NCBI GenBank assembly: GCA_965205485.1
Contig: OZ242180.1
Location: 1,760,001 to 1,824,000 of the forward strand
DNA: 64,000 nucleotides
Source of the DNA: Candidatus Latescibacterota bacterium
GTDB lineage: Bacteria > Latescibacterota > UBA2968 > GCA-2709665
Direction of reading: 5' to 3'
Part shown: in pieces, positions 3,711-61,818 of the stretch
Position numbering within the stretch: the first letter of the stretch is position 1
Layout of the letters: the number at the start of each line of letters is the position of its first letter
The notes under the pieces: generated by a model
Databases searched by the model: none
Told to the model about the DNA's origin: nothing
What the model saw: only the letters and a program-made list of their open reading frames with translations
Translations under genes and position numbers: made by a program

Positions 3711-5300
3711 TTATTTCGCCAGCACCATCTTGCGCGACACCACGTCCGCCCCCGCCTGAAGCCGATACAGGTACACGCCCGTACTCACCTGCCGTCCGGC
3801 GGCGTCGCGACCATCCCACGTAACCGTATAGCTTCCCGCGGGCTGGAACCGTCGAACCAGCAGCCGGACCTCCTGGCCCAACAGGTTGTAGATCGCCAGT
3901 TTCACGTCGACCGCTCTTTCCAGGGTATAGCGTATGGTTGTCGCGGGGTTGAACGGATTCGGGCGGTTCGGTCCCAACGATGAAGCAAGCTGGCTGACGG
4001 CGTTTACGTCGCCATTCAGATTGACCTCATACGTCACGCGCCTGCCGGGCATCAGCGGAATGCTGCTCCAGCTGGCGATGGTCTCTCCTTGTGCATTACG
4101 CACGCGCGCCCGGTACATACCGTTTACGCGGCGCTGTTCGTCTGGTGTGACTCTCACCACAGCGCGCCCCGTCTCTTCGGTCGTCTTACGCCACGCAAAG
4201 ACAGGCGCACGTCCGGAAATCGAACGCGAAACCTCGACGGTCAGACCCTCCGGATCGCCATCGCCGACAATCTGTACATCCACCTGGGCGACGTCCTCGA
4301 ATGCGATATCACTCTCCAGATAGATACCCGCTCCCACGACAAACGTTTGACCGAATACATTGACCGGGATCACGTAGCTCAGCTTGGGCGACTTCGTGTC
4401 CTCGTCTCCGATGATCGCGGGATTGTCCCAGTAGTATTTGACGAACCCGCCGCCGGCTTCGGCCTTCGCGATGATTTCCTGTACGATCTTGAGGCCGTTG
4501 ACGTCCTCCACGTCTATCATATTCTCGCCTATCAAACTGAGGTCGGCGGTGCCGTGAAAGATCAGGTGGCCCGAGGAGCTTATGACGAAGATGTATATCG
4601 AACCATGTTTGAAATCCTCGCCCTCGGTCCTGATTGCGGCCTGCACGGTCGCCAGGTACGCATAGCCCTTTTCTTCGATGATGGGAACGAGGACCCTCAG
4701 CCCTTCCACAAAGGCTTTCAGCGACTCTCTGTCCTTGACGTCCCGGGCCGTCACTTCCAGCAGATCAAAGATGTTTGACTCGGCGTCCACGTCCGACAAA
4801 TCCATGTGGAAGCCGCCGACAAGGATGAAGTCATCCCCTCGAATTGCAACCGGAACCGCGTAGGCGACCCTGGAGGGTTTGTCGTCCCCTACCGCTGGAT
4901 CGTCCCAATCGTACTCGACAAACCCGCCGTCGTCATTGGCCGCGGCGAGCATATCCCGGACAATCTTCGTGCCTCTGTCATCCTCGAGATCAATCACGTT
5001 CTTGTCTTCGAATTTCACATCGGCCGCGTGAAAACTCACCACGCCTTCCGGCGTCAGAATGACGAGATAGACCGGGCCGGCTTTCCAGTCGCCCTCGGAC
5101 CTGAATGCCTCCACCAGTCGCCCGACAACGGCGTAGTCGGCGGCGCTCTCGAGGGAGTCCCGGGCCGCTTCTACAAATGCCATCAGCGTCTCTCTGTCTA
5201 CAACTTCGCGCGCTCGTACCCCGTCGTCATGACCGAACGCAGGTGTTGAGCAAAAAAGGAAAGCCGACAGCCCCAGCGCAACGATCGGAGATTTCATCAT
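3711..5300 (-). CDS. Secreted protein: signal peptide + two single-Cache domains + shared unnamed domain + FlgD-Ig/T9SS-like C-terminal domain
   Basis: Two repeats of Y(L/I)..I...FH...D(D/V)(R/N)G.KIV...GGFV.Y.WD.P; C-terminal PNPFNPATTIRY...IYNLLGQEVR...WDGRD..G..VSTGVYLYRL; no transmembrane helix or output domain. Confidence 0.8.
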   Translation of the reverse strand: MMKSPIVALGLSAFLFCSTPAFGHDDGVRAREVVDRETLMAFVEAARDSLESAADYAVVGRLVEAFRSEGDWKAGPVYLVILTPEGVVSFHAADVKFEDKNVIDLEDDRGTKIVRDMLAAANDDGGFVEYDWDDPAVGDDKPSRVAYAVPVAIRGDDFILVGGFHMDLSDVDAESNIFDLLEVTARDVKDRESLKAFVEGLRVLVPIIEEKGYAYLATVQAAIRTEGEDFKHGSIYIFVISSSGHLIFHGTADLSLIGENMIDVEDVNGLKIVQEIIAKAEAGGGFVKYYWDNPAIIGDEDTKSPKLSYVIPVNVFGQTFVVGAGIYLESDIAFEDVAQVDVQIVGDGDPEGLTVEVSRSISGRAPVFAWRKTTEETGRAVVRVTPDEQRRVNGMYRARVRNAQGETIASWSSIPLMPGRRVTYEVNLNGDVNAVSQLASSLGPNRPNPFNPATTIRYTLERAVDVKLAIYNLLGQEVRLLVRRFQPAGSYTVTWDGRDAAGRQVSTGVYLYRLQAGADVVSRKMVLAK

Positions 5301-5366
5301 GGTCGCCTTTCTGCAGGACGTCCGTGGATCAGGATGAGCATGGGAGACCAAGATAGCGGCGGGACC

Positions 5367-6347
5367 TCAGAAAGTCAACCCGTGCGGGCGCAAAATGAAC
5401 AAACACGCCGCCGCCGTGCCTGTCGCGTACAGACATGTGGCAATGACGAACGCGCACATACGCCGCATGTCCCCGGGCTGTCCGCCTTCCGGGTCGGATC
5501 CGTCACCCAGCCAGAGGTCGGTTATCTTCTTTCCATCCTGCCAGATGGGACCCGCGAGACGGCGCTGCAACGCGCCCGCGGCCGTCGCTTCGCTCCAGCC
5601 GGAATTCGGACCGGGAACGAGCGCGTGCTGTCGCCAACCGTTAAGCAGCGCCTTGCGGGCGGAACATCCGGGCAGAAGGAAGGCGACGACTACCATCCCA
5701 AGATAGGTCAATCTTGCCGGGACATAATTGAGCATGTCGTCCATCCGGGCGCCGCACCAGCCGAAGTAACGGTATTGCGGTGTCCTGAATCCCACCATGG
5801 AGTCCATGGTACTCACCACCTTGAAGAAGACGATCCCTGGAAGTCCCATAACCACGTACCAGAAGATGGGCGAAACAAACCCGTCCACCGCGTTCTCGCT
5901 CAAGCTCTCCATACCCGCCCGCCGGCAGGCCGCGGCATCCATCCTCTGGGTATCCCGGCCGACGAGCATCGAAACCGCCCTTCGCGCGCCATCCGGATCG
6001 GCGGCGCGATCGATGGCCATCCCGTGTCTGCACAGGTCCTTGAGCGCGATCATACTAAATATAATATATGCCTGGAAGATCCATCCGATATCGTATTGGA
6101 AATGACTGAGAGTAATCGCCAATCCACAGATAAGCCCAATCCAGAACGCGGAGAGGAGCAACATCAGCATACAACCGCCCGCGTATCCGTCCAGACCGAG
6201 ACGGCGCAGCATCCGCTCGAAAATGGAGAGCGTACCACCCATCAGGCGAATGGGGTGCCACGCAAAGACCGGGTCACCGAACAGCCCGTCCAGAAACACC
6301 GCGAAGAGGAGAAGAATCGGGTCAGGCGCAAGCAGGGTCAGGTCCAT
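5367..6347 (-). CDS. cbiB: Adenosylcobinamide-phosphate synthase CbiB/CobD
   Basis: FGDP...HPI, LVGRDT, ESLSENAVDG, STMDSMVG, DDMLNYVPARL and PNSGWSEA motifs. Confidence 0.92.
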   Translation of the reverse strand: MDLTLLAPDPILLLFAVFLDGLFGDPVFAWHPIRLMGGTLSIFERMLRRLGLDGYAGGCMLMLLLSAFWIGLICGLAITLSHFQYDIGWIFQAYIIFSMIALKDLCRHGMAIDRAADPDGARRAVSMLVGRDTQRMDAAACRRAGMESLSENAVDGFVSPIFWYVVMGLPGIVFFKVVSTMDSMVGFRTPQYRYFGWCGARMDDMLNYVPARLTYLGMVVVAFLLPGCSARKALLNGWRQHALVPGPNSGWSEATAAGALQRRLAGPIWQDGKKITDLWLGDGSDPEGGQPGDMRRMCAFVIATCLYATGTAAACLFILRPHGLTF

Positions 6348-7462
6348 TTCAGACGCCATCCGAGGGCGAGCGCATCGTAGACGAGATCCAGCGGGGCGTT
6401 TTCCTTTGTGTGAAGCCTGGCGTAACAGGACGGCCACGCTTCGGGTTTCGCCGCCAGTGAGGCCGCCAACGTGGCTGCCTGCTGCCGCAACACCGGATCG
6501 GCCAATGCTTGCGAGAGCGTTCCGTACCGCACGCGGTCCCAGACTGCCGCGTACGCGTAAGCCGCAGCGGACACGCGCGGCTCATAGACGACGGACTCCA
6601 GGTTTTTTTCCAGCAATACGCGTTCTGCTTCCTTCAGGCGTTGGTCCATTGCCCGCAGGAACCGGTCGCGCCCGATCCCAAACCGTTTCAGCGCGTGGAA
6701 AATGCTCCTCGTATGAGACGGCTCCAGGCCGTTCTGCCATCGCAGGGACTCCAGTGTGGCCTTGCGTACCGCCCGCCCGATCAGCTCCCCCAGTTTCGCG
6801 TGATGGCCCGCGTTGGTCTTTGGTACTCTCGTTTCGTCCAGCGGCGACGCGATACAATACTGGTCGGTACCGGTGCCCGTAGCGAGGTCGTGAGAATAAC
6901 GGCTGGATATTGCGAGGTCACGCAGTGCGGCGGATTTGCCCTCGGTCATCGTGACCGCCGCCCGCGCCATTGCGCCCGGCGTGAGCGGCCAGTTGATGAG
7001 TAGCATGGTGTTGATGGTGCCGGCGTGCGGATTCGTCCGGATCCATTCCGCGTCCTCTTCGTGCCAGGTCGCCGGATCACCCGCACATCCGGCATTGCCC
7101 TCCACGCCCGCCGTCACGACCGCACATACACGCAATTCCGCGTGGGTTTCCACGACGTGGGCGGCACAGTTCATATTCGCGGCCGTCCCCATCACGGCGA
7201 CCTGATCCGGAGGCAGGCTGCGTTCCGCACAAACGTGGCGGTGATAGCCCGCCTGGCCGAGTTGCCTGATCAACGCAAAGCGGGCTTCGTGTCCCGCGCC
7301 CTCGCAACTCTGGTGATTCACCAGGAACCGGATGCCCGTGCACAGCCCGCCGCGATGCGCCGACGTACTCAGCACCTGGTGGGGCGTGTGCAATTCGACG
7401 ATCAGGAAGCGCCCATCGCGCTTCAGACCGTAGTGTTCGTGGCGATCGAGGTATTCGTTCAT
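6338..7462 (-). CDS. cbiZ: Adenosylcobinamide amidohydrolase CbiZ
   Basis: MGTAANM, VTAGVEGNA, GTINTML, TEGKSAAL and ATGTGTD motifs; overlaps cbiB. Confidence 0.9.
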   Translation of the reverse strand: MNEYLDRHEHYGLKRDGRFLIVELHTPHQVLSTSAHRGGLCTGIRFLVNHQSCEGAGHEARFALIRQLGQAGYHRHVCAERSLPPDQVAVMGTAANMNCAAHVVETHAELRVCAVVTAGVEGNAGCAGDPATWHEEDAEWIRTNPHAGTINTMLLINWPLTPGAMARAAVTMTEGKSAALRDLAISSRYSHDLATGTGTDQYCIASPLDETRVPKTNAGHHAKLGELIGRAVRKATLESLRWQNGLEPSHTRSIFHALKRFGIGRDRFLRAMDQRLKEAERVLLEKNLESVVYEPRVSAAAYAYAAVWDRVRYGTLSQALADPVLRQQAATLAASLAAKPEAWPSCYARLHTKENAPLDLVYDALALGWRLKWT

Positions 7463-7472
7463 AAGCAGAAAA

Positions 7473-8290
7473 AGCTGTCAGCTATCAGCCGTCAGCCATC
7501 AGCTAAAGGCAAAAGGCAACGTCAAAAGCGACATCTCCCCGCCACACCGCAGATCTCTCTCCCCGGCCCAACGCCTCCGGCGGGCGAAGGAAAACACGGG
7601 ATCAAAACCAAAAATCAAAACCCCTTTTCCCCAAATTCCCTGCCTACGGCGTGTTCCTTTTGAAGCGACCAAAAGGAACCAAAAGTCGCCGCTGGGCGCG
7701 GGGCCTGCCTAATGCATGGCGCGAATACCCTAACAGGACGCACCGGATACGCTGGCCTGCCAATTTACGAGAATAACGCAAATCGGTGGGGGACGGAACA
7801 ACGCGCCCTGCTCTCGTAGTACTCTCGAAAGGCATCGCGTCTGTAAACGGTGTGGCCTCCAGGGTTGGAGCAGCTTTGAGCCCTCAGCCACCAGCCAAAA
7901 GCGGGTAGACGTAAGACGGGAGAGGGGAGAGTTCGGATGCCGTAACGGGTTTCTTCTCATGCCGCAGGCAAGTCGGAAGAATAGACCGGCAAGGGCTTCT
8001 TCTCCCGTCTACCCTCTACCGTCTCACCGCCTTTTGGCGACCTCTCTCCCCGGGCCTCTTTCATAATGGAAAGAGGGAGAAAAGCAGATCTTGCCCAACC
8101 CATGCATTTCACATCCGGCGACCGGGGGTATGGGGGGTTTTTCCGTGCTGATCCGTCCATCGCATTGGTATTGGCACTGCTGAAGGGTTGGCAGGCCACC
8201 CTATTCTCATTTTTACCTCTGAAGTGATTCACGGAAAAACCGGCCCCCTGCCGAAGGGCGCGCTTCTTTTTGGTCCTTTTTCTTCCGCGC
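7473..8290. repeat. Composite dispersed repeat, copy A, left part
   Basis: Modules (TCAGC heptads, GGGAGAC/GTCTCCC hairpin, GGTTTTTCCGTG...CACGGAAAAACC stem) shared with 37950-38530. Confidence 0.8.
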
Positions 8291-10036
8291 CAGAGTGTGT
8301 CAAAAGTAATTATAGATTGTTTCTATCGTTGATCATGCTTACCGTTATGAAGTCCTTGTCGGTTTCCCATCCAAAAGGTGGAAAAAATGGATTTCATTCG
8401 CGGTGAGTCAAGAGATCAAGGCACGTTGTTTCCGGAGCATTTGGACGATTACATCGATGAAGAAAACCCGGTGCGTTTTATCGATGTGTTTGTTGATGAC
8501 CTGGAACTGAGCGCGTTGGGTTTTCAACGCATCGCCCCTGCCTGGACGGGGCGTCGGCCTTATGATCCGCGTGATTTGCTCAAGCTCTACATCAACGTTA
8601 TCTCAATCGGATTCGGTCTTCTCGAGATTAGAGCGTGAGACGCATCGCAACGTGGAAGTGATGTGGCTTCTCAGGCGGCTGCGTCCGGATCACAAGACGA
8701 TAGCCAATTTTCGTAAGGACAATCCCAAAGCCTTTAAGGGGGTCTTTCGCGCCTTCACTGTCGTTTGTCGGCGGTTGTCGCTTTATGGGGGTGAGTTGAT
8801 CGCCGTTGACGGTAGTAAATTCAAAGCCGTGGTCCCCAACGCAATTTTACCAAGGACAAGTTGAAAAGAAGGCTTCAAGAACTTGATGCAAAGATCGAGC
8901 GATATCTTCAAGAATTAGATGACCAGGACGCTCAAGACGCAAAAGCGTCATCGTCGGAAGCGGATCCTTCTCTAAGTGAGAAAATGCAACGCCTGAAAGA
9001 ACGAAAAGTGACGTATACGCACCTGTTGGAGGACCTTGAGGCGCGCGGAGAAACCCAGGTCTCGCTGACGGACCCGGACTCTCGAGCGATGCCTAAGAGT
9101 CCGAAAGCCAAAGTGGGATACAATGTCCAGGCAGCCACCGACGATAAGCATCAGCTCATTGTGGAAGAGGATGTGACCAATCAGGCCAATGACAAGGCAC
9201 AGCTGAGCAAAATCAGTATCGGTGCCAAAAAGGTCTTGGACGTGAAGGCCTGCCGCGTGGTTGCCGATGGTGGCTATTACAATGGTGAAACGATCAAAGC
9301 CTGCGTTGAGAAACATATCGAGCCGTATGTGCCCAAACCCGATACATCCAACAGCAAAAGCAGAGGCTTATATAGTAAAGACGACTTCATCTATGATCCC
9401 CAACAGGATCACTATTTATGTCCTGCCGGGCAAGTGCTCACCTATGCTTATGACGCCACGTATCGGAAGAAAAAAGCTGACCCTGGTGTCGTCAAAAAAC
9501 ATTACACGACATCGGCGTGTACAACCTGCGGGGTGCGGTCCTTATGCACCACAAACAAGAATGGACGCATTCTCACGCGGTGGGTACATGCTCCTGGATG
9601 AGATGGCGCAGCGTCTGGAAGAAAACCCCGGGGTGCTTCACAAACGACGAGAAATGGTCGAGCATCCCTTCGGCACACTCAAGTTCTGGTATGGGTATGC
9701 CCACTTTCTTGTCAAAGGCCTCGACAAGGGGGGCCGAGTTCTCGTTGATGACCCTTGCAGGCACAATATCAAGCGCGCCATCAACCTCGTCGGTGTGCCC
9801 AAAATGGTTGACGCCGTCGGCTGAGAAGCTCATCCGACATTGCCTTGCCCGTCAGACTATGGGTTTAGACGCCCACGTGAGGCACTTCTGTGGCCGGATC
9901 TCAAAGACTTGCAAGGAACCTCTTGACCGTAGCACCGATGACTGGGAATCCGCAACGACCTTGACCTGATCATGAGACACACCCTGGAGACAATCTGACC
10001 CATCTGTGATTATACTGAGAGTTTTTGCACACTCTG
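8291..10036 (+). mobile_element. IS1182-family insertion sequence
   Basis: TIRs CAGAGTGTGTCAAAA and TTTTTGCACACTCTG (13/15 match); GCGC duplicated at 8287-8290 and 10037-10040. Confidence 0.9.
8387..9824 (+). pseudogene. IS1182 transposase, split by about four frameshifts
   Basis: LFPEHLDDYI..NPVRFID, GRRPYDP, PDHKTIANFRKDN, AVDGSKFKA, SLTDPDSR, GYNVQ, ADGGY and VEHPFGTLK spread over four ORFs. Confidence 0.85.
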
Positions 10037-10290
10037 GCGCATAAGAAAAAGGACGTAAAAAAAGGAAAAATAAGAATTTATCACAAAAGAGCCGACTTGC
10101 AAATGACAAATCCTTTTTTGCCTTTCTGTTCAAAATCGTGCCTACGTCGTGTTCCTCAAAAGCGGGAAGACGTGAGAGGGAAGAGGGGAGAGATTGCCTG
10201 CCTTGTAAGGTCTCGTCTCGCGCCGGAGGCAGGCTGGAAAACAATACCGGGCGATGATTTCTTCTACCGTCTCCCCTCTAACCGTTTCTT
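10037..10290. repeat. Composite dispersed repeat, copy A, right part
   Basis: GCGCATAAGAAAAAGGACGTAAAA...GCAAATGACAAA...TGCCTACG.CGTGTTCCT plus hairpin; collinear with 38281-38530. Confidence 0.8.
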
Positions 10291-10292
10291 CA

Positions 10293-11534
10293 TCAACCTC
10301 CAAATTCCGAAGCGAAGATCAGAAAGTCCTGGAAGTCGACCTCTCCATTGTCGTTCAGGTCGAACCGGGCATCGAAGTCATCGTCGCCGGCTGACCCGCC
10401 GAACGCGGTGGCGAATGCCAGGAAATCGCTGAAGTCGACAACGCAATCCCCATCGAAATCAGCCACACTGCCGACGAACGCAATGCTGGACGGCGGCAAT
10501 CCTGTGCCGATCGGACCGGCCACGAGCTCATCCGTACTCACGTCGTAGACCTTGACGCCGGCGGACGCCGGATCGCCGAAACTCCCCTGGTCCAGAATAT
10601 ATAACCGTTCACCGAACACGCCAAGGCCGGGTACGAATCCGCCGGAAAGACCGTCGAGCCCCTGAGAAACGGATCCTGCCGTCAGATCCAGCCGTTTGAC
10701 GGTATTGACGAAGTTCTCGTCGGTTACGACGGCGTATCCATCGCTATCGGAAGTCATCACCAGAGAACTCAGATTGCCGCCCACGGCCGCCTCGTCCAGC
10801 ACAATGCCTTCGCTCCGCATGGCCTCAAGATCGATCACCTCGATACCGCCGTCGGTCAGGTCGGAGTACGTATTCACCGCACTTACGATCCACTTGCTGC
10901 CTCGCCGGGCTGCACCCGCGGGATTCTTGCTGGTCATTTCAATCCCCTGCGTGCCCTCTGCCGCCGGATCCGCGTCCACGAGATGGTCGGTCGTCACGTC
11001 GACAACTGCAATCGTTGAGAATTCGGTGGGTACCCACCCATTCTCCCTGTCCAGCCGATGGCACGCGGCGAACAACTGGCCGCCGTGTACTGACAGCTGA
11101 GACGTTTCGGGCAGGCCGTCGGCATCCGCGAATGTTGAAAGGTCCACCGAACCCAGCGAATCGCCCGTGACGGGATTGACGATGAGCAATTGCGTTCGTT
11201 CGTAAAGAGAGATATACGCTTTCTCCTCGCTGACAAAGGCGATATCGTGGGGGTTCGAGCCGTTCCCCGTGGAATATTGCGTCAAGGGCGTCGCAAGATC
11301 GCCGCGATCGAGGACGATCACGTTGTCCTGACCCAGACGATTGAGAACGTACACCTTGTCGCGATAGACGCGCACGACGGCGTCGGAATGAATGACCAGG
11401 TGGTCGTTCGCAGCCGTATTCGTGCCGAGATCCAGGCTTGACAATGCTCCGCTTGTGTAATCCGTCGTGGTCATCACCGCCTGGTTCGCGAATGCATCGG
11501 TTGCAAGAAACAGAGCCAGCAGAAACCACCTCAT
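10293..11534 (-). CDS. Secreted beta-propeller protein with C-terminal dockerin/EF-hand-like domain
   Basis: Signal peptide; YncE-like blades (GSNPHDIAFVSEEKAYIS); tail DFDGDCVVDFSDFLAF...DLNDNGEVDFQDFLIF. Confidence 0.7.
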   Translation of the reverse strand: MRWFLLALFLATDAFANQAVMTTTDYTSGALSSLDLGTNTAANDHLVIHSDAVVRVYRDKVYVLNRLGQDNVIVLDRGDLATPLTQYSTGNGSNPHDIAFVSEEKAYISLYERTQLLIVNPVTGDSLGSVDLSTFADADGLPETSQLSVHGGQLFAACHRLDRENGWVPTEFSTIAVVDVTTDHLVDADPAAEGTQGIEMTSKNPAGAARRGSKWIVSAVNTYSDLTDGGIEVIDLEAMRSEGIVLDEAAVGGNLSSLVMTSDSDGYAVVTDENFVNTVKRLDLTAGSVSQGLDGLSGGFVPGLGVFGERLYILDQGSFGDPASAGVKVYDVSTDELVAGPIGTGLPPSSIAFVGSVADFDGDCVVDFSDFLAFATAFGGSAGDDDFDARFDLNDNGEVDFQDFLIFASEFGG

Positions 11535-11659
11535 TGAATCCTCCCCTTGGGTAAAGTGTAAAAGACCACGATCTGTTGTTCAGTCTTCGCAGGACAGGAA
11601 GACTTCGGTTGAAAGAGGCGGGTGCGCAACGAGGCCTTCCCGCTTCGTCCCAACATTGC

Positions 11660-13855: not shown

Positions 13856-13858
13856 AGG

Positions 13859-15001
13859 CTATGGATCAAGTTTCCGATAGTACTTGAGCTGGTGATCCGG
13901 GGCCAGGTCCGGGTGAAGGATCTTTATGATATCGGCCAGCAGCACGTCCGGTTCGATCAGTCCGGTTTCCCAATAGTCATTGCCGCCGTGTTCATTGAGG
14001 CGCGCATTGGCGTTGAATACCCTGCCCGTCCCCACCGCATTGAATTTCCCGTATCGTTCATCTTCCGCCACAACGTCGCCTATGGCTCGCCATTCGTTTC
14101 TCATGGTGATCCAGACTTCGGCATCGTGCGCCTTTTCGTAGACCGCTTCGAAATCCAGAGACAGGCTCCGCCGCGATTCATTGTCCCCCCACAGGTAATT
14201 CGCGCCCGCGTCCTCGAGCAGTTGCGCCGGATATGATCTTCCGCCCGACATAAACCAGGTTCCTCGCCAAAGGGATCCGACGAAGACAGTGGGTTTACTG
14301 TCGGGCAGCAAATCTGCGGTTAACAATCTGCGCGCGTCGTACCTGGCGGCAATACTGTCGAACCGTGCGGCGGCCAGATTCTCCTTGTTGAAGAAAGCGC
14401 CCACGAATTTGAGCCACTCCACGCGCCCGAGCAGTGTTGGTTCGGTGTAGGCGGCATTTACCACGGCGGCCACGCCGGCCTGCTGTAGCGTATGGTACGC
14501 ATTGTCCTGTGATGGCGCGTCGATCATGACGATATCGGGCCGGAGCACGAGGACCCGCTCCATATCGATGGACCTGCCTCTGCCGACTTCCGATATCTTA
14601 CCCTCTGCGAAACGCTGTCTGACGGCACTCGAATTGACGAACCTGACGTTGTCGACCGCGACCAGGCTTTCCAATTCGTCCAGCTTTTCGATATGGGGCA
14701 GGTGCGTCGTGGATGTCGTGATCAACTTGCGCACGGGAATCCGAATTCTGGGGTCGCCTTCGTAGCCATCGGGCGGTTTCCTGCCGCGTTGTACCAGGAC
14801 GTATTGAAGCGTTTCCCCCGTTTCGGACCCCGGCACGACGACCGCCACGACCTTGTACCCGTCGAAGTAGTCAACCCGAAAACCCTCGGCATATTTCAGT
14901 GACACCTGCGCATGGACAGGTATCGCCGCCACGCAGATACCGATGCCACAAAACAGACGGGTCCAAGATCTGATATTCAACACGTGGAATCCTCCGGTCA
15001 T
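13859..15001 (-). CDS. btuF: B12/iron-chelate periplasmic binding protein
   Basis: PVRKLITTSTTH, EPTLLGRVEWLKF, DAGANYLW, GGNDYWE and PDVLLADII motifs; first gene after the riboswitch. Confidence 0.8.
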   Translation of the reverse strand: MTGGFHVLNIRSWTRLFCGIGICVAAIPVHAQVSLKYAEGFRVDYFDGYKVVAVVVPGSETGETLQYVLVQRGRKPPDGYEGDPRIRIPVRKLITTSTTHLPHIEKLDELESLVAVDNVRFVNSSAVRQRFAEGKISEVGRGRSIDMERVLVLRPDIVMIDAPSQDNAYHTLQQAGVAAVVNAAYTEPTLLGRVEWLKFVGAFFNKENLAAARFDSIAARYDARRLLTADLLPDSKPTVFVGSLWRGTWFMSGGRSYPAQLLEDAGANYLWGDNESRRSLSLDFEAVYEKAHDAEVWITMRNEWRAIGDVVAEDERYGKFNAVGTGRVFNANARLNEHGGNDYWETGLIEPDVLLADIIKILHPDLAPDHQLKYYRKLDP

Positions 15002-15224: not shown

Positions 15225-15302
15225 AATTGCCAACCACGCTGCCGAAGCACGCGCTTATGTCACCTTTTCCCGAATCCACGAGGAAATGAATATAAGGTCT
15301 GA

Positions 15303-45697: not shown

Positions 45698-45698
45698 A

Positions 45699-50899: not shown

Positions 50900-51556
50900 C
50901 TAATACGGCCGCATCTGTACGGCGAGGGCGAGCGAGAGTTCGATTTCCGTGATCGCCCGAAACGTTGCCTGGCCGATCAGATCGAGCTTCCTCACCTGGT
51001 TGATGCGGGGGGCAACCCGCGCCAGTTCTCTGGCAGACAGAATCTGGCTGAACAGGTTGCAGGCGTGCGCCAGACTGATGATCACCACGTCCCGGGGGTC
51101 GGGGATCTGGTCGCTGAACAGGATCTCCATAATCCTGAGCTTGACTTCCCGCTCGGCCTGGTCGTCCACGGACGGGTATCGCCGCGACCGGAAGACCCAG
51201 AGAAACCGGTCGTCCCGGCGTTCGAGGATGCCCTTTTCAACCAGCCGCTCAAGAGACGTCTCGCGAATGCCCGCAGCGCTGCGAATGGCGGTGCGTTCCA
51301 CCCAGAAGCGCGCGTCGCGGGTTTCGTCAGCCTGCGAAATGTCGGCGAGCGTCGGATCGAGAAGGCCGTCCCCAACGGGGGTCGAATCCACCAGGACCAG
51401 CCGGTCCGGATCGGTGTCGATTCGGTTTTCCATGGCCAGGTCCATCAGCACCCCGCCGGCCAGCGCGTAGCGCAGGGACTGATCCGGCACGCGGGCGAAT
51501 CTGCCGTTGTCGTCGTCGAGTATCAGGAGCATGAGTTCTTCGGGGAATCTAAGCAT
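50900..51556 (-). CDS. GPP34 (Golgi phosphoprotein 3) family protein
   Basis: EELMLLILDD, ALAGGVLMDLA..NRI, GD.LLD..L, RLVEKGIL and RRYP motifs. Confidence 0.85.
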   Translation of the reverse strand: MLRFPEELMLLILDDDNGRFARVPDQSLRYALAGGVLMDLAMENRIDTDPDRLVLVDSTPVGDGLLDPTLADISQADETRDARFWVERTAIRSAAGIRETSLERLVEKGILERRDDRFLWVFRSRRYPSVDDQAEREVKLRIMEILFSDQIPDPRDVVIISLAHACNLFSQILSARELARVAPRINQVRKLDLIGQATFRAITEIELSLALAVQMRPY

Positions 51557-51597
51557 CGTCAGTTCCTTTCTTGAATGGAAGTCAATATCCAACATAA

Positions 51598-53777: not shown

Positions 53778-55295
53778 ATGTTCAGCGGTATGCGCAGTTT
53801 GTTTGTACTCGCAGTGGCAGTGAGTCTGACGTGGGGTTGCGGTCGTGAACGCCTGACAACGTCGCACGTGCCGGAGTCCGGAGAACAGTTCGGTCAACCG
53901 GCCGGCAAGATTGCACTCAACGGAATGATGAGGGCCGTGGTGGTGGCCAACGTGTCGGACGGCGAGGCGCCTGTAAGCGGCGTTACTGTCGAGTTCTCGC
54001 GTTCGGTTTCAGGTCAGGCCGCCAATTTCCAATGGTCGGGATCCACCAATGTACGCGGTCAGGCCTACGTGGATATCGGGGGCGCCGGGGTGACCGGCTA
54101 CTACCGGGCGCGGGCGATGAGGGACGGTAGCGAGATCGGTTCGTGGCTGAGCATACCGGTCAACAGCGGATATCAGTCGTCAGTTGAGCTGCCGATCGGC
54201 GACAAAGCGAGCGCAACCGGTGCGATTGAGCTGACGCCCGGCGGTCTGCCCGCGAAGATAGCCATCGGGGTCGCCGTGCCGCTTACGGGTCCTCAAGACG
54301 TGTACGGCCTGCCGGCGATGGCAGGCTTCGAGTTGGCTCAGAAGGAAATCAACAGTTCATCGAGACTCGGCGGCGCAAGTATCGAGTTTATCGTCGAGGA
54401 CACAGAGGGCTCGGTCGACGCCGCCACTGCAGCGTTCAACAAACTCATCGACGAAGACGGCGTAAACGTCATCCTGGGCCCCGGTATTTCCACCGTGGGA
54501 AAGGAAGTGTTCCCAATCGCCCAGGAGAACGAGGTCCTGGCATTCAGTTCGACGTCGACTGCCGTCGGCCTGAGCGCCATCGGCGATTATATCTTCCGCT
54601 CCGGACTCAACGTCGGTACGCTGGTCCCTGGCGCCGTCAAGGACCTGCAGGAGAAACTGAGGTTCAGCAGGGTCGCCACGATGGTCGACGATGCTGACGT
54701 CTATTCCAGGAGCCTGGATGAGGCGGTAAGCAATGCCCTGATGGAAGGCGAGGTGGAGATTCTGGGCCGGGAGACATTCGCGACGGGAGATACGTCTTTC
54801 GCGGACCAGTTGAACAACATCAAGGAATTGAACCCGCACGCCCTCTTTGTTTCGTGTCTGGCGGCGGAGATGATTGAAATCATGACCCAGGCCCGTGAAG
54901 TTGGCATTCCCTCGAATATTCCCATCATTATTCCCGAAATGACGATGGACGAAGTGGCGGCCGCCGGAGACGCCGCGGAACGTGTGATCAGCATTACGAG
55001 TTGGGCAACCAACGCATCCACGCCGGGAAATCAGACCTTCATTGAAAGTTATATGGCGGAAAACGACAGTGAGCCCGGTCCGTGGGCCGCGCTTTCGTAC
55101 GCCTCGCTGTACATTCTTGCGGATGCTATCGCGGACGCCGGATCGACGAACGCGAGCGCGATCAAGGACGCAATGGCCGCTACCCGGGATGTCGACACGA
55201 TTCTGGGCCGGTTCTCGTTCAACGCCGACGGCGACGCGGTCTACGATCCTATCGTGCTTGTTGTTCGGGACGGCGCATTCGAGCTGTTCGAGTAA
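53778..55295 (+). CDS. Lipoprotein: shared unnamed domain + LivJ/K-like binding domain (paralog 1)
   Basis: Lipobox-like TWGC; IGVAVPLTGP, ILGP, IGDYIFR and ILG.FSFNADGD motifs. Confidence 0.88.
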   Translation: MFSGMRSLFVLAVAVSLTWGCGRERLTTSHVPESGEQFGQPAGKIALNGMMRAVVVANVSDGEAPVSGVTVEFSRSVSGQAANFQWSGSTNVRGQAYVDIGGAGVTGYYRARAMRDGSEIGSWLSIPVNSGYQSSVELPIGDKASATGAIELTPGGLPAKIAIGVAVPLTGPQDVYGLPAMAGFELAQKEINSSSRLGGASIEFIVEDTEGSVDAATAAFNKLIDEDGVNVILGPGISTVGKEVFPIAQENEVLAFSSTSTAVGLSAIGDYIFRSGLNVGTLVPGAVKDLQEKLRFSRVATMVDDADVYSRSLDEAVSNALMEGEVEILGRETFATGDTSFADQLNNIKELNPHALFVSCLAAEMIEIMTQAREVGIPSNIPIIIPEMTMDEVAAAGDAAERVISITSWATNASTPGNQTFIESYMAENDSEPGPWAALSYASLYILADAIADAGSTNASAIKDAMAATRDVDTILGRFSFNADGDAVYDPIVLVVRDGAFELFE

Positions 55296-55434: not shown

Positions 55435-56958
55435 CTGTTCAACAATATCAGGGGTGTGCTGGTATTTGCGCTCGTCACTGGCGTGAGCTGGAGTTGCGGC
55501 GGCGAACGCGTCACGACGTCGCAGCTTCCGGAAGCCGGAGACGCGGTCGGTCCCGCGGCGGGCAAACTCGCTGCGGTCGGAAACACGACTCAGGCTTCGG
55601 TCATCGTTCGCGTCCTTCACGGTCAGACGCCGCAAAGCGGCGTCACCGTCGAGTTCGCCCGATCTGTCTCCGGGCGTGTGGCGGACTATGCGTGGTCCGG
55701 TGTGACGGACGTGCGCGGGCGCACGCAAGTCAGGATTGCGGGAAACCGGGTGAGCGGTTATTATAGCGCGCGGGCGATGCAGGGTGGGGCCGTGCTGGGT
55801 AACTGGACGAGCATTCCGGTCAACGCGGGATTCGAATCCACGGTTGAACTACCGGTCGGCGAAACGTCCCGCGTGACCGCCTCAATGAGGCTGACGCCGG
55901 GGGGGCTTCCCGAGCAGATTGTGATCGGACTGGTACTTCCCTGGGAAGAGCCGCAGCGCCCCTTCAGCCAGCCGATTATGAATGGATTTCAACTCGCCCG
56001 CGTGGAGATCAATGGATCATCCCGGTTGGGCGGCGCACGCATCGAGTTCATCGTCGAGAGTTCTCAAGGTACCGCCGAAGGCTCGGTTGAAGCGTTCGAC
56101 AAGCTGATTCGTCAGGACCGAGTACCGGTGATTCTCGGCCCGGCGCTTTCCACCGGGGCCGTGGCGGCGTTCCCCGTCGCGCAGCAGAGCCAGGTGGTCG
56201 CCTTCAGTTCAACGTCGGTCGCCCCCGGTCTGAGCGCAATCGGCGACTACATTTTCCGCGCCGGCCTCAGTCTGGGCGTGCTCGTACCCGGCGGCGTTGA
56301 AAAGACGATGGATAAACTGGGCTATCGCCGGGTGGCGACGATGGTGGATGAGAGCGATTTCTTTGCGCGGGCCAGCGACGAGGCGCTGAGGAGCGCGCTG
56401 ACCGGTGCGGACGTCGAGATCCTGGCAAGGGAGACGATTGAAACGAGCGATTCCACATTTGTCGAACAGTTGACCCGCATCCAGGCGCTGAACCCGGACG
56501 CCATATTCGTCTCGGTGATATCGCCGGCCGACAGGGTACGAATCCTGGTTGAGGGACGGCAGATCGGCATACCCGCCAATGTGCCGTATATTGTTCCGGA
56601 GCTGACGATAGACGACGTGCAGGCTGCTGGTGAAGCCGCGGAGGGCGCGATCACCTTTACAGGCTGGGTCAGTACGGCAACGACGCCAGGTAACCGGGAG
56701 TTCGTCGAGAACTACACGGCGGAATTCGGGTCCGGACCGAACCACTGGGCCGCGCAATCCTTTGCGGCTTTGCACATCTTGTCGGAAGCGATCGCAAACG
56801 CAGGTTCGACCGATGCGAACGTGATTCGAGACGAATTGGCGGACATCAGGGATCTGGACACGATTCTGGGACAATTCTCGTTCAACGCCGACGGCGACGC
56901 TGTTTACGATCCCGTTGTACTGATCGTCCGGGACGGCGAATTCGAGATTTTCGAGTGA
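55435..56958 (+). CDS. Lipoprotein: shared unnamed domain + LivJ/K-like binding domain (paralog 2)
   Basis: SWSC lipobox-like; start placed at the CTG after GAGGAGG by alignment with paralog 1 (ORF track starts at 55336). Confidence 0.85.
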   Translation: MFNNIRGVLVFALVTGVSWSCGGERVTTSQLPEAGDAVGPAAGKLAAVGNTTQASVIVRVLHGQTPQSGVTVEFARSVSGRVADYAWSGVTDVRGRTQVRIAGNRVSGYYSARAMQGGAVLGNWTSIPVNAGFESTVELPVGETSRVTASMRLTPGGLPEQIVIGLVLPWEEPQRPFSQPIMNGFQLARVEINGSSRLGGARIEFIVESSQGTAEGSVEAFDKLIRQDRVPVILGPALSTGAVAAFPVAQQSQVVAFSSTSVAPGLSAIGDYIFRAGLSLGVLVPGGVEKTMDKLGYRRVATMVDESDFFARASDEALRSALTGADVEILARETIETSDSTFVEQLTRIQALNPDAIFVSVISPADRVRILVEGRQIGIPANVPYIVPELTIDDVQAAGEAAEGAITFTGWVSTATTPGNREFVENYTAEFGSGPNHWAAQSFAALHILSEAIANAGSTDANVIRDELADIRDLDTILGQFSFNADGDAVYDPVVLIVRDGEFEIFE

Positions 56959-57054: not shown

Positions 57055-58566
57055 ATGATTGCCGGTGCTCGCGGTCTGCTCTTGTTCACGCTTGTCGCTG
57101 CCGCAACCTGGGGTTGCGGGGATGAACGCCCGACGATCTCGCGGGTACCGGAGGCTGACCATCAGACCGTCCAGCCATTGGGAAAACTGGCTGGCAGTGG
57201 AGACACCCAAGCCGCTCGGGTTGTGGCCCGGGTCATGCAGGGTGAGAATCCGGTAGGCGGCGTCACCGTCGAGTTCGCGCGTTCGGTTTCAGGACGGGCG
57301 ACCGATTATGAATGGTCGGCCACAACCGGCCTGGATGGTCAGGCGCGGGTAGAGATCCGGGGGGACCGGGTGAGCGGATACTACCGGGCCCGGGCCCTGC
57401 GGGACGGTCATCCCCTGGGGACATGGTCGAGTATACCGATAAATGGCGGGTATGAAGTGACGGTTGACCTGCCCGTTGGCGGTACCGCGCGCGTGACGGG
57501 TTCGTCCCTTCCAACACCAGTGGGACTCCGTGGTGAGATTGCGATTGGCATCGTCCTGCCCGTGACCACCCCACGCGGTCTGGAGATAAAGAGCGGATTT
57601 GAACTCGCTCGCGACGAGATCAACGGCTCATCCAAACTCGGCGAAGCGAGAATCAGTTTCATTATCGAGGATTCTCGAAGCTCGCCAGAGAGCGCCGTTG
57701 AAGCGTTCAACAAACTCATTCATCAGGACGGCGTTCCCGTCATTCTCGGCCCCACCCTCTCAACCGAGGCCAAAGAGGTCTTTCCCATCGCGCAACGGAA
57801 TAGGGTGGTGGCTTTCAGTTCGACGTCGAGCGCATCCGGCCTGAGCGCGGTCGGCGATTTTATCTTCCGGGTTGCGCTCAGCGTTGACGTCCTCGTGCCT
57901 GCCGGCGTCCGGCAGACCCGGGAGAAGCTCGGCTATCAGAGAGTGGCTACGATATATGATCGGATCGACGTCTTCACGCGGAGCAGCGACGAGACGTTGA
58001 GCAGTGCGCTCGCTGAAAACGGAGTCGAGATCCTCGCCAGGGAGACCTTTGAGACGGGCGATACCACCTTTGCCGAACAGTTGACACGGATCAAGGCGTT
58101 GAATCCGGACGCCGTCTTCGTCTCGGCCCTTTCAGCGGAACTGTCTGAGATTCTGATTCAGGGCCGTCGTCTGGGCGTTCCACCCGGTGTTCCCTTTATT
58201 ACTCTTGAGATGACCTTGAACGAAGTGCGAGCCGCGGGCGCAGCCGCCGAAGGCGCAATTACGTTTACAGGTTGGACCAGACTGGCTGCCACACCGGGAA
58301 ACCAGGCCTTTGTTGAAGATTATGAAGCCAAATATGGTATTGACGCCAGCCGCCGGTCGGCGCAGTCCTATGCCGCCCTAAACATCCTCTCCGAAGCGAT
58401 CGCGACTGGAGGTTCAGCCGACGCGAGCGCAATTCGAGACGCGATGGCGAGTATCCGGGATCTGGATACTATCCTGGGCCAATTCTCATTCAACGCCGAC
58501 GGCGATGCGGTTTACGATCCAATTGTGCTGATTGCGCGTGGTGGCGAATTCGAGATCTTCGAATGA
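57055..58566 (+). CDS. Lipoprotein: shared unnamed domain + LivJ/K-like binding domain (paralog 3)
   Basis: TWGC; same architecture as paralog 1. Confidence 0.88.
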   Translation: MIAGARGLLLFTLVAAATWGCGDERPTISRVPEADHQTVQPLGKLAGSGDTQAARVVARVMQGENPVGGVTVEFARSVSGRATDYEWSATTGLDGQARVEIRGDRVSGYYRARALRDGHPLGTWSSIPINGGYEVTVDLPVGGTARVTGSSLPTPVGLRGEIAIGIVLPVTTPRGLEIKSGFELARDEINGSSKLGEARISFIIEDSRSSPESAVEAFNKLIHQDGVPVILGPTLSTEAKEVFPIAQRNRVVAFSSTSSASGLSAVGDFIFRVALSVDVLVPAGVRQTREKLGYQRVATIYDRIDVFTRSSDETLSSALAENGVEILARETFETGDTTFAEQLTRIKALNPDAVFVSALSAELSEILIQGRRLGVPPGVPFITLEMTLNEVRAAGAAAEGAITFTGWTRLAATPGNQAFVEDYEAKYGIDASRRSAQSYAALNILSEAIATGGSADASAIRDAMASIRDLDTILGQFSFNADGDAVYDPIVLIARGGEFEIFE

Positions 58567-58664: not shown

Positions 58665-60275
58665 ATGTCAACCCGTGTTCGCAGTTTGTTTCTGTTCGCG
58701 CTTGTCGCAGTCGTAACCTGGGGTTGCGGGGGTGAACGCCTGACGACGTCGCAGGTACCGGAGGCTGACGTTCGAACCGGCGAGGCATTGGGAAAACTGG
58801 CTGTCAGTGGAGACACCACACCTGCCCTGGTCGTCGCCAGGGTGATTCAGGGTGAGAGTCCGGTAAGCGGTGTCACCGTGGAAATCGCACGTTCCATTTC
58901 CGGGCGCCCGGCGGATTACGAGGCATCGGGGACGACCGATGCGAACGGCGTCACGCGGGTGGAAGTTGGCGGGTCGGGCGGGTACTACCGGGCCCGGGCG
59001 ATGCAGGACGGAAGTTCGCTGGGATCGTGGGCCAGTATACCGTTAAATGGGGGGTATGAAACCAACGTCGATTTGCCTGTTGGGGACAAGGCGCGCGTCA
59101 CGGGTGCGTTTGAACGGGCCCTGGTTGCGTTCGGCGAGGGCCAGGCCGTGCATATCCAATCGCTGCTTACCCATACGATCTCGGCATCGCTTGGCAATCC
59201 GTCGCGCAACGCCGTCGAGCTGGCTGTCCGGGACTACGGAACCGTCCACGGCCGCGACGTCGAGCTCGGCGATCCCGTTGACGGCCTGTGCGGGCCGGAG
59301 GGCGGACACGCGGGCGCAGTGCAGATTGTCGCCGATTCACGGGTGTTGGGCATCGTCGGCACATCCTGCTCGGGCGCCGCGGTGGCGGCGTCACCGGTCA
59401 TCAGCGCGGCCGGTCTGGTCATGATTTCACCATCCAATACGTCCCCAAGATTGACGTCCGACCTGGCGGGCAACGCGAGCTCCGACTATCACCCCGGATA
59501 CTTCCGGGTTGCGGTCAACGACCTCTACCAGGCCCGGGCCGTTGCGGACTTCGCATACAATGAGCTTGGCCTGCGGCGCATGGTGGCCGTAGACGACGGC
59601 GACCCCTATACCACGGCCCTCGTGAGCGCATTCGGCGATGCGTTCGCCGCCGTTGGCGGCGAGGTTTCCGTCAGCGCGCGGATAGACAAAGGACAAACGG
59701 ACATGACGTCGGTTCTCGCGGAATTCGCGGAAGCGGGGCCGGACGCCATCTTCTTCCCGCTATTCGACGAGGAAGGCCTGCCGTTCGCGAAACAGGTAAG
59801 GGAATTCGACGGTCTCGAAGGCGTGACCCTCATTACGGGCGCTGCCCTGCTCGATTCGGAGTTTCTCGCGACGCCTCAATCCGAGGGCGTGTACGCGGCC
59901 GGGCCTGAGGCGGATCTCGGATCGAATGTCAATGCCGTAACCGGCAAGAGCGTGGACGAGGCGCTGGCCGCGTATGAAGCGGCGTACGGCGGATTTCCCG
60001 GGACGCCGTACTGGGCGCATTCCTACGACGCGACGACGTTGCTTCTCAGCGCCATCGAATCCGTGGCGATCGCAAGGGACGAAGAGCTGATCGTGGACCG
60101 CAACGCGCTGCGCCGGGAACTCCACGCGACGTCCGGTTTCCAGGCTCTCGTCGGCACGCTCGCCTGCGATGAATTCGGTGACTGCGGCACCGGACGCATC
60201 AACATCTACCACCATACGGACCCGAGCGTCACCGATCCCTCGCAATTGCCCGTGGTCTATCGATTTGTGCCGTAG
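58665..60275 (+). CDS. Lipoprotein: shared unnamed domain + divergent branched-chain amino acid binding domain (paralog 4)
   Basis: TWGC; binding domain of another subfamily (DGLCGPEGG, GTSCSGA, MISPSNT, CDEFGDCG). Confidence 0.88.
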   Translation: MSTRVRSLFLFALVAVVTWGCGGERLTTSQVPEADVRTGEALGKLAVSGDTTPALVVARVIQGESPVSGVTVEIARSISGRPADYEASGTTDANGVTRVEVGGSGGYYRARAMQDGSSLGSWASIPLNGGYETNVDLPVGDKARVTGAFERALVAFGEGQAVHIQSLLTHTISASLGNPSRNAVELAVRDYGTVHGRDVELGDPVDGLCGPEGGHAGAVQIVADSRVLGIVGTSCSGAAVAASPVISAAGLVMISPSNTSPRLTSDLAGNASSDYHPGYFRVAVNDLYQARAVADFAYNELGLRRMVAVDDGDPYTTALVSAFGDAFAAVGGEVSVSARIDKGQTDMTSVLAEFAEAGPDAIFFPLFDEEGLPFAKQVREFDGLEGVTLITGAALLDSEFLATPQSEGVYAAGPEADLGSNVNAVTGKSVDEALAAYEAAYGGFPGTPYWAHSYDATTLLLSAIESVAIARDEELIVDRNALRRELHATSGFQALVGTLACDEFGDCGTGRINIYHHTDPSVTDPSQLPVVYRFVP

Positions 60276-60297
60276 TGGTCAAACCTGAGGAAGTTCC

Positions 60298-61818
60298 ATG
60301 TACATCTGGATACGCGGAGCCATTGTTGCGTCGCTCGTTACTGGCATGTTTTGTGGGTGCGGCGGCGAAAGCAGGATGCCGTCGCTCGCGCCGGAGACGG
60401 AAGATCGGGTTGCAAAGCCGCTGGGTAAACTGGCTTCAGGCGGGAATCAGGCGTTAGCGGTCGTAGTGGCCCGGGTGATGCAGGGTCAAACGCCGGTCAG
60501 CGGCGTTTCCGTCGAAATCGGCAGAGCCGTTTCGGGAAGGACGGCGGAATACGAATGGTCGGGTGCAACCAACGCGCGCGGCCAGGCAAGGATTGAGATC
60601 GCCGGGAACCGGGTGACGGGTTACTACCGCGCGAGGGCGATGCGTGGCGGAAGCGTGCTAGGATTGTGGTCGAGCATTCCCGTTAACGGCGACCATGAAA
60701 CGACCGTCGCATTGCCGGTTGGCGGCAATGCGCGCACGGCGGGCTCCATAAGGCTGGCCCCCGGCGGTCTCCCCGAAGAGATTGCCATTGGCGTCGTTCT
60801 GCCCTTGACGGGACCGCAGACCCGTTACGGATTACCGGCAAGAGACGGCTTTGAACTCGCCCGGGAGGAGATCAACAACTCGTCCAGGCTCGGCGGCGCC
60901 GGCATCAACTTCCTTATCGAGGATTCCCGGGGCACGGCCGAAGGCGCCGTTGACGCATTCAACAAACTGATCGATCGGGACGGCGTGTCCGCCATACTCG
61001 GTCCCGTGATTTCAACGGCCGCCCGGGAGGCGTTTCCCATTGCCGAGCGAAACGAGGTAATCGCGTTCAGTTCAATCTCGACGGCGGCGGGCCTGAGCGC
61101 GATCGGCGATTATATATTCCGCGCCGGCCTGAACGTCAACGCGCTGTTGCCCGGCCCCGTCAGGGAGACGCATGAGAAACTGAGGTATCGGAGGGTGGCG
61201 ACGATTGTCGATGAAACCGATGTCTTTTCGAAGAGCAGCGACGAGACGATCAGAAGAACGCTATCCGGGATCGAGGTTGAAATCCTGGCGACTGAGACGA
61301 TTGCCACGGGCGATACCACGTTTAGCGAACAGTTGACGCGTATCAAGGCGTTGAATCCGCACGCCGTCTTTGTCTCTGCCCTGGGCGCCGAACAATCCAG
61401 GATACTGATCCAGGCGCGCGAAGCCGGTATCGGCGCAAATATCCCCTTCCTGGTTCCTGTAATGACCGCGGTGGAAGTTGAGGCTGCGGGCGATGCCGCT
61501 GAGGGCGCCATTTCTTTTGTCAGCTGGTCAAGCGCCGCCGAAACGCCCGGAAATGAGACCTTTGTGGCGAACTATCTCGCGAGATACGGTTCCGAACCAA
61601 GCACGTGGGCGGCCCAGTCGTACGCCGCCCTCTACATAATCGCGGAGGCCATCTCCCGGGCCGGGTCAACCGATTCGGGCGCAATTCGAGGCGCGATGGC
61701 CGGTACGCGGGATCTGGATACGGTACTGGGCTCGTTTTCCTTCGACGACAGCGGTGATGCGGTTTACGACCCGGTGGTGCTGATCGTCAGAGACGGCGAG
61801 TTGGCAGTCTTCGAATAA
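60298..61818 (+). CDS. Lipoprotein: shared unnamed domain + LivJ/K-like binding domain (paralog 5)
   Basis: FCGC lipobox-like; same architecture as paralog 1. Confidence 0.88.
   Translation: MYIWIRGAIVASLVTGMFCGCGGESRMPSLAPETEDRVAKPLGKLASGGNQALAVVVARVMQGQTPVSGVSVEIGRAVSGRTAEYEWSGATNARGQARIEIAGNRVTGYYRARAMRGGSVLGLWSSIPVNGDHETTVALPVGGNARTAGSIRLAPGGLPEEIAIGVVLPLTGPQTRYGLPARDGFELAREEINNSSRLGGAGINFLIEDSRGTAEGAVDAFNKLIDRDGVSAILGPVISTAAREAFPIAERNEVIAFSSISTAAGLSAIGDYIFRAGLNVNALLPGPVRETHEKLRYRRVATIVDETDVFSKSSDETIRRTLSGIEVEILATETIATGDTTFSEQLTRIKALNPHAVFVSALGAEQSRILIQAREAGIGANIPFLVPVMTAVEVEAAGDAAEGAISFVSWSSAAETPGNETFVANYLARYGSEPSTWAAQSYAALYIIAEAISRAGSTDSGAIRGAMAGTRDLDTVLGSFSFDDSGDAVYDPVVLIVRDGELAVFE

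Follow-up and report, generated by a model that had tools for sequence, protein, structure and literature searches.

Why should one small protein domain stand beside the export signal of proteins that have little else in common? The question is raised by a stretch of 64,000 nucleotides from the genome of a Candidatus Latescibacterota bacterium (GenBank assembly GCA_965205485.1, contig OZ242180.1, positions 1,760,001 to 1,824,000), hereafter called the window, in which such a domain occurs in five tandemly encoded solute-binding lipoproteins and in one secreted protein with two Cache domains. Latescibacterota have not been cultured, and their cell surface has received hardly any study. A first-pass annotation, made from the letters alone, had read the domain as a lineage-specific beta-sandwich adaptor that docks ligand-binding domains on a common surface scaffold or partner. 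The present analysis shows that one class of Latescibacterota places the domain beside the lipobox or the T9SS (type IX secretion system) tail of many unrelated proteins. We give an even chance to the reading of the domain as a portable tag by the export signal, which a common surface partner or enzyme would recognise for docking or processing, with a nearby lysine as the likely site of cutting or coupling. New here are the lysine motif coupled to the domain in both architectures, and a genus devoid of the permease expected for its binding proteins.

The Shared Domain and Its Distribution

The six-frame translation of the window, scanned with the core regular expression of the motif proposed in the first-pass annotation, contains 6 occurrences, against 0 in 50 triplet-shuffled windows, and the full motif is present in all six copies. 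The five lipoprotein copies share 54-67% identity among themselves and 31-39% with the Cache-protein copy. Open reading frames and a Pfam scan agree with the architecture described earlier, namely five copies after a lipobox and the sixth between the Cache domains and a tail made of an FlgD immunoglobulin-like (FlgD-Ig) and T9SS-type region, and with the presence of two different export signals. Peripla_BP_6 occurs in all five lipoprotein genes of the array, and dCache_2/sCache_2 together with FlgD_ig in the Cache gene, where Por_Secre_tail stays below its cut-off; in the six window proteins nothing above cut-off covers the shared domain.

A hidden Markov model built from the six copies retrieves 20 copies from the genome, a single contig of 5.13 Mb that is 97% complete, all with independent E-values below 1e-19 and with the next match at 0.13-0.35; the gap persists with wider models, and a wider model adds no copy. 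These comprise 11 lipoproteins with lipobox and tether, and 9 proteins in which the domain precedes an FlgD-Ig/T9SS-type tail. The lipoproteins carry eight LivJ-type domains (one together with a Cu/Zn superoxide dismutase, SOD); a NigD_C-like and a lipocalin-like domain occur once each, assigned below cut-off, and one lipoprotein has no cargo; the tail-type proteins carry six Cache or Cache-like domains, one 5'-nucleotidase and two unknown cargoes. LivJ-type or Cache cargo is found with 14 of the 20 copies.

Among 168 genomes of the phylum, the domain occurs only in a single class of Candidatus Latescibacterota, and its supposed lineage specificity holds at that rank. It is present in all 41 nearest genomes and in 85 of the 168 phylum genomes, with the families of the class differing in frequency (f1 21/21, f2 30/31, f3 3/3, f4 30/76), and in none of the 36 phylum genomes of families outside the class. 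One cluster of the domain family includes a Candidatus Handelsmanbacteria protein. In six f4 genomes, the copies inspected either are of tail type or show no visible lipobox, and f3 has both types. In a search of 1.84 billion representative sequences with 846 matches (E up to 0.001), true members, with at least 94 bits per domain, account for 110 of the best 150 matches, the remainder being giant Big_1-like repeat proteins whose repeats score no more than 29.5 bits each with the family model. Four near-identical proteins of 3000-3200 residues (L051-L054, genome G104) contain a diverged internal copy of the domain (48-50 bits) with a different loop, plus an internal tail-like domain. According to a passage of PMC7081726, the related PAUC34f group is also found outside sponges.

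Fold, Family Membership and Conservation

The predicted structure of the domain is a beta-sandwich of transthyretin type, with an additional eighth strand not found in simple spacer domains, in keeping with the sandwich first proposed from the letters. Its AlphaFold2 model is all-beta (pLDDT 95.3), and Foldseek places transthyretin and 5-hydroxyisourate (HIU) hydrolase at the top, with TM-scores of 0.50-0.66 to transthyretin. A wide structure search ends in a tie at Z 9.7-10.9 among 3E8V, YedX, SlaA, a chain of the hydrazine dehydrogenase complex, transthyretin, SleC and a carboxypeptidase D domain. By its Z scores of 8-11 to many members, the predicted model belongs to the transthyretin-like (prealbumin) fold superfamily. 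Transthyretin-type matches span positions 1-96 of the model, and carboxypeptidase-type matches stop at 90 (alignment 2-90). In the full-length model of lipoprotein 3, a disordered tether (residues 1-49) is followed by the eight-strand domain (53-151), a low-confidence linker and a normal LivJ fold (Z 46 in structure comparison).

Within this known fold the domain is a clean new family, unnamed and of about 96 residues. A strong match to a spacer family such as CarboxypepD_reg or Big_1, which would have spoken for a generic spacer, was not found above threshold, although the domain shares its fold superfamily with those spacers. CarboxypepD_reg (PF13620) reaches at best 20.3 bits in the genome copies and 30.6 bits among 86 representatives (P0229), for a cut-off of 32.3; Big_1 (PF02369) reaches at best 21.6 bits among the genome copies, for a cut-off of 34.9; bMG3 remains below its cut-off, and the 20 copies scanned against NCBIfam gave four single weak matches, none at cut-off (best E 0.012). 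Clusters of CarboxypepD_reg type, or unnamed ones, come up in the ESM Atlas at 0.90-0.93, as leads and not as assignments. Nor does the domain correspond to a generic stalk domain, repeated in tandem in long adhesins, since none of the 110 members has two strong copies. No description of the domain was found in the literature searched, outside which most subscription journals lie, and in passages from the main text of PMC12993501, devoted to sponge Latescibacterota, the words 'secretion', 'lipoprotein' and 'FlgD' do not occur.

Across 130 copies the conserved residues include R24 (96%), G28 (96%), W35 (95%), W72 (98%), S74 (98%) and P76 (95%). The conserved patch expected of an adaptor has its counterpart in the sequence alignment as a family-specific loop, RS[IV][SA]GR, accompanied by a conserved WxSIPxN segment; the last strand is only moderately conserved. 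With respect to the binding-protein cargo the domain is the more conserved part (59.9% vs 51.5%). In the transthyretin topology the last strand leads the chain back to its starting end. On this basis the two chain termini and the loops RS[IV][SA]GR and SIPxN would be gathered at one pole of the predicted model, so that the domain would form a side knob, not an in-line spacer.

A Companion of Diverse Exported Proteins

Depending on the export signal, the 110 members divide into 47 of lipobox type, 44 of tail type and 19 partial or unassigned ones, and in 39 of the 44 tail-type members the domain lies at most 45 residues from the tail. The cargo scan covered 86 members, 24 short fragments or redundant LivJ-type proteins having been left out. 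It yielded solute-binding domains (8), Cache (10), SnoaL (7), leucine-rich repeats (LRR, 4), LamG (5, overlapping with others), beta-propellers (15; WD40, PD40, NHL, YWTD, FG-GAP, SGL) and enzymes or redox proteins (7; esterases, cytochromes and SOD being among the cargo types), and further chagasin, PrcB_C, Temptin_C and unknowns. Three kinds of cargo, Cache, LRR and esterase, are found with the lipobox as well as with the tail. Because only 18 of the 86 members have solute-binding or Cache cargo, the special link to small-molecule-binding folds claimed earlier is not supported, and an adaptor restricted to ligand binding or capture is too narrow a reading; the diversity of the cargo across both signals makes the module a general companion of exported proteins.

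In a quick tree (111 rows, 112 columns, 58 of 108 forks open, rows with a short domain or an unassignable signal left out) the domains group by export type, with 10 changes against 37.5 after shuffling (weak support), and cargo changes inside branches. The genome also encodes near-paralogues without tether and domain, consisting of one LivJ-type and two lipocalin-like lipoproteins. Taken together, the grouping by export type, the swapping of cargo and these near-paralogues suggest that signal and domain act as a mobile cassette. A few members depart from the two common architectures: in P0220 the domain is followed by what we take to be a C-terminal SWGxIK-type end, in P0234 it is preceded by a presumably dockerin-like repeat, and at three f3 loci (L037, L041, L043) the order, under labels that we assume, is CHRD-like cargo, domain, lysine motif, cohesin-like domain and tail.

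A Lysine Motif Beside the Domain

In the lipoproteins the tether contains [GSAN]K in 46 of 47 cases, at a median of 9 residues before strand 1 and 21 residues after the lipobox cysteine, in the form P-L-[GSA]-K-L-A. In the interval of the tether that was tested, the lysine is found in 41 of 47 sequences, for a shuffle mean of 8.2 and a maximum of 18. Cysteine and lysine are invariant in 36 of 36 sequences, and 23 residues separate them in all five window lipoproteins. Among the predicted lipoproteins of the genome, collected with a crude finder, the motif occurs in 8 of 10 domain-bearing proteins vs 4 of 109 others.

On the other side of the domain, a small-small-Lys motif follows it in 16 of 39 tail-type linkers, 13 times at +9 (shuffle mean 3.5, maximum 9), and is found in 15 of 20 long linkers vs 1 of 19 short ones. 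Tails without the domain carry the motif in 2 of 29 (shuffle mean 1.2) and 0 of 21 distinct linkers, i.e. 2/50, drawn from the best-scoring FlgD_ig matches at 60 loci of 10 genomes, which rules out a general pre-tail motif of the phylum. Since the motif is found in the tether on the N-side and in the tail linker on the C-side, the lysine is placed between domain and anchor in both polarities. Two propeller-like lipoproteins, at G000:C1 863877-866478 (-), have a similar tether with a GKVA motif and no domain, so the lysine motif can also occur alone.

Interpretation

Several observations weigh against a recognition tag. One protein with two copies (P0001) exists among 120 other homologues, and a long insert, containing LamG in four cases, separates domain and tail in 5 of the 44 tail-type members. 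The eighth strand is reached by 100 of the 110 members and 10 fall short of it. Lysine is missing from 23 of the 39 tail-adjacent linkers, including that of the window's Cache protein, and 3 of them have arginine instead; the +9 cases are not independent because most belong to a single branch of the tree. Proline follows the lysine in 4 of 46 tethers, and trypsin-like proteases disfavour proline after the cleavage residue. Relative to the tail, the domain is the less conserved part (42.4% vs 52.4%), and T39, G43, G56 and Y58 are among the invariant residues that any member of the fold would be expected to have. The one-pole geometry and the surface exposure of the conserved residues are read from strand order and the topology of transthyretin. 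In addition, the C25 peptidase of the T9SS is found phylum-wide (163 of 168 genomes) and therefore does not track the domain (85 of 168), which also discards the domain as a core T9SS component. Finally, no partner emerges from the gene neighbourhoods, where conserved neighbours reflect plain synteny and none explains the domain.

The alternative that survives best, and which we regard as possible though doubtful, is a domain with a passive stabilising or spacing role, carried along with the export signal in a recombination cassette, the lysine motif being an inherited linker; the Ig-like domains preceding the tail in T9SS cargo of Bacteroidota would be its model, and the title of one published paper speaks of Ig-like domains as stabilisers of T9SS cargo. 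Membership of the same superfamily as the CarboxypepD_reg and CnaB spacers, the sub-threshold Big_1 and CarboxypepD_reg matches, a weak near-full-length intimin match (E 0.0014), the weakly supported grouping by export type, the cargo swaps inside branches and the close paralogues without domain all fit such a passenger. Spacer domains, however, are usually found in tandem arrays, and the present domain is single-copy in 110 of 110 members, unlike the repeat arrays of the giant proteins, besides having an extra last strand and a conserved loop. Above all, one inherited cassette does not explain a lysine motif that stands on opposite sides of the domain at similar spacing and falls to chance level in domain-less tails.

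The preferred reading, that of a portable tag, can be extended to a new surface-addressing system, in which a dedicated enzyme or receptor would read the conserved pole and cut or couple at the lysine nine residues off, providing lipoproteins and T9SS cargo with one common way of being shed or of being linked into a modular coat, made up of orphan ligand-binding proteins, eukaryote-like repeat proteins and enzymes. In this full form we consider it improbable.

Closest to the modular capture system of the first-pass annotation, and in our opinion unlikely, is a transthyretin-like oligomerisation module whose copies would pair by their edge strands, building complexes in which binding proteins are mixed with Cache proteins and enzymes. 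The last strand of transthyretin is its dimer strand, and transthyretin and HIU hydrolase, the top Foldseek matches, align across the whole model including this strand; tandem arrays of domain genes are, moreover, conserved in relatives. Pairing of this kind leaves the lysine unexplained, and has to reckon with an identity to transthyretin of 12-18%, with Z values of about 10 tied with those of non-transthyretin relatives and with the moderate conservation of the last strand. A pilus-like or sortase-like covalent polymer, in which the lysine would be cut as in type V pilins (lipoproteins with transthyretin-like domains, cut at Arg49 in Mfa1, whose cysteine is Cys20, or at Arg46 in FimA, as described in part of PMC13655056) or in which PorU, able to move cargo onto primary amines and peptides (a section of PMC10202324), would couple tail cargo onto the lysine of lipoproteins or other cargo, is very improbable. 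The Cys-Lys distance (23 residues in the five window genes, median 21 in 46 relatives) is akin to the pilin Cys-Arg distance, but the tether is predicted to be disordered, the domain folds at high confidence without it, a single sandwich replaces the two-domain pilin, the genome contains no Mfa2, Mfa_like_1 or FimA family match, and the arginine of 3 tail-side linkers cannot accept an isopeptide bond.

The domain provides a sequence marker that ties lipoproteins of Latescibacterota to T9SS-type cargo and names a concrete site, the lysine. If it acts as a recognition tag, it would point to a processing or attachment step of which the literature searched gave no description in type IX secretion beyond Bacteroidota, and possibly to a portable display tag. 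If it does no more than stabilise, it remains a clean new domain family that merits a database model, but an ordinary one.

Secretion and Orphan Binding Proteins

The genome has genes for SprA and for a C25 peptidase that bears a tail, and in it 9 matches to the PorV family exceed the cut-off. Of its proteins 21 end in a tail, and 9 of these carry the domain. The Cache protein and 8 others combine the features of T9SS type A cargo (signal peptide, sorting domain, SprA/PorV/PorU in the genome) and are probably secreted by this route, as judged from their sequences. In Bacteroidota, PorU cleaves the tail and anchors or releases the cargo (a section of PMC10202324), and a passage of PMC11285876 considers that the T9SS may exist in other FCB (Fibrobacteres-Chlorobi-Bacteroidetes) phyla.

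The genome has 14 Peripla_BP_6 matches, and PF02653, the LivHM-type permease, has 0 matches in the genome and in its 14 congeners (0/15 genus genomes); it is present in 133 of the 168 phylum genomes. Because the genus is devoid of this permease, the five LivJ-type proteins are orphans that cannot feed a standard HAAT importer, and classical ABC (ATP-binding cassette) import is discarded, with no permease in the neighbourhood or the genus. They would be displayed or shed ligand-binding proteins, not importer subunits. The lack of a LivHM-type permease and the module shared with T9SS-type cargo suggest that the lipoproteins are located at the cell surface. Since the genus keeps LivJ-type arrays without this permease, automatic annotations as 'branched-chain amino acid transport' are likely wrong.

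Gene Neighbourhood

The coordinates of the features are collected in Table 1. Lipoprotein 2 probably starts near 55435, at a CTG preceded by a run resembling a ribosome-binding site, not at the listed ATG 55336. A scan of the five-gene array for promoters and terminators stayed at chance level. The array is flanked by GPP34, SulP, HicB and pyridoxal phosphate (PLP) decarboxylase genes; the GPP34 (Golgi phosphoprotein 3 family) gene, at 50903-51559 (-), lies just upstream and is syntenic in relatives. This family is tied to sponge symbiosis in a passage of PMC11706023.

Table 1. Positions of the shared domain, its host genes and further tail proteins; window coordinates unless a contig is named
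Feature	Position	Strand	Details
Secreted Cache protein	3711..5300	-	signal peptide, two Cache domains, shared domain, FlgD-Ig/T9SS type A tail
Shared domain, Cache-protein copy	3996..4292	-	
C-terminal FlgD-Ig / T9SS type A sorting domain (start approximate)	3714..3980	-	FlgD_ig 47 bits (cut-off 27); Por_Secre_tail 22.7 bits (below cut-off 27)
Lipoprotein 1	53778..55295	+	lipobox Cys 53838-53840; Lys 53907-53909; shared domain 53931-54218; LivJ-type domain ~54258-55256
Lipoprotein 2 (start uncertain)	55435..56958	+	Cys 55495-55497; Lys 55564-55566; shared domain 55591-55878; LivJ-type domain ~55915-56904
Lipoprotein 3	57055..58566	+	Cys 57115-57117; Lys 57184-57186; shared domain 57211-57498 (predicted strands to ~57507); LivJ-type domain ~57535-58509
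Lipoprotein 4	58665..60275	+	Cys 58725-58727; Lys 58794-58796; shared domain 58821-59102; more divergent LivJ-type domain ~59181-60161
Lipoprotein 5	60298..61818	+	Cys 60358-60360; Lys 60427-60429; shared domain 60454-60741; LivJ-type domain ~60778-61752
Seven proteins with a (by our own reading) cohesin-like domain + tail	G000:C1 527219, 1531427, 2671382, 3921029, 4348554, 1916443, 446909		

The Cache gene stands within a cobalamin uptake and salvage region (696-15463, -), with a riboswitch (RF00174) at 15292-15463 and encoding Peripla_BP_2, a TonB-dependent receptor, CbiZ, CobD/CbiB, then FecCD and an ABC ATPase; it looks inserted or co-located there. At 44279-47761 (+) lies a domain-less Peripla_BP_6 protein, and next to it come a small sCache_3_2 protein and then an MFS transporter; in L006 a similar protein adjoins a HAMP/HATPase kinase. 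These may be sensory rather than ABC components. Four PhyH-family dioxygenase genes occur in 17 kb at 17929-34314, with methyltransferases and a GHL6 hydrolase.

Seven tail proteins of the genome share a different domain directly before the tail, and five of them consist of little beyond that domain and the tail; its designation as cohesin-like is our own reading and not a family match. Directly downstream of domain-bearing tail proteins, the genes L008:4673-5503(-) and G000:C1:4389934-4390920(-) encode a CarboxypepD-like segment with an internal tail domain.

Comparison with Known Systems

The transthyretin-like accessory domains, represented by PF13620, the transthyretin-like domain of carboxypeptidase D (5AQ0/1QMU), 3E8V, the N-terminal extension of SusC (9HFJ) and the CnaB domains of Gram-positive pilins, have the same predicted fold. 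The model superposes on 3E8V, a B. fragilis fragment, with Z 10.9 and a root-mean-square deviation (rmsd) of 2.4 over 81 aligned residues, and on 5AQ0 with Z 9.7 and rmsd 2.5 over 77. They have in common the TxxxG and GxY motifs and the role of accessory module of exported proteins. Unlike them, the present domain scores below the Pfam cut-offs, possesses an eighth strand and the RS[IV][SA]GR and WxSIPxN segments, and occurs as a single copy beside the export signal, with a coupled lysine motif and a one-class range. Transthyretin and HIU hydrolase (2IGL, 4PWE) align to positions 1-96 of the model (Z 10.3, rmsd 3.0, 94 aligned; Z 9.8, rmsd 3.2, 93 aligned), but the identity is 13-17%, and the domain has no helix and is always fused or lipid-anchored. 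The Ig-like Big_1 repeats of intimins and invasins resemble the domain weakly in sequence, chiefly along its first two thirds; the domain scores below cut-off, and structure searches favour the transthyretin-like fold.

The type V pilins of Bacteroidia (FimA, Mfa1-5) likewise consist of a lipobox, a basic residue 20-30 positions after the cysteine and a transthyretin-like sandwich, and one putative Bacteroides adhesin matches the domain model at Z 7.1. The lipoproteins examined here also have a basic residue at that distance, a putative cleavage point, but it is lysine instead of arginine, and there is no second sandwich and no predicted anchor strand. A type V pilin, built from two sandwiches with anchor and donor strand, is discarded for them, residues 1-49 being disordered and a single sandwich being followed by the binding-protein fold. 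PF08842, PF13149 and PF06321 have no match in the 97% complete genome, for a positive B. thetaiotaomicron control, a search that distant pilins could escape.

Regarding the cargo, the LivJ-type domains share the fold of the LivJ/LivK proteins of the HAAT family (3TD9, 4NQR), in a genus without the PF02653 permease, unlike HAAT importers. Similarly, the Cache cargo shares the fold of the Cache_2 sensors (4EXO, 2QHK), and is found here in a soluble T9SS-type protein, not in a membrane receptor.

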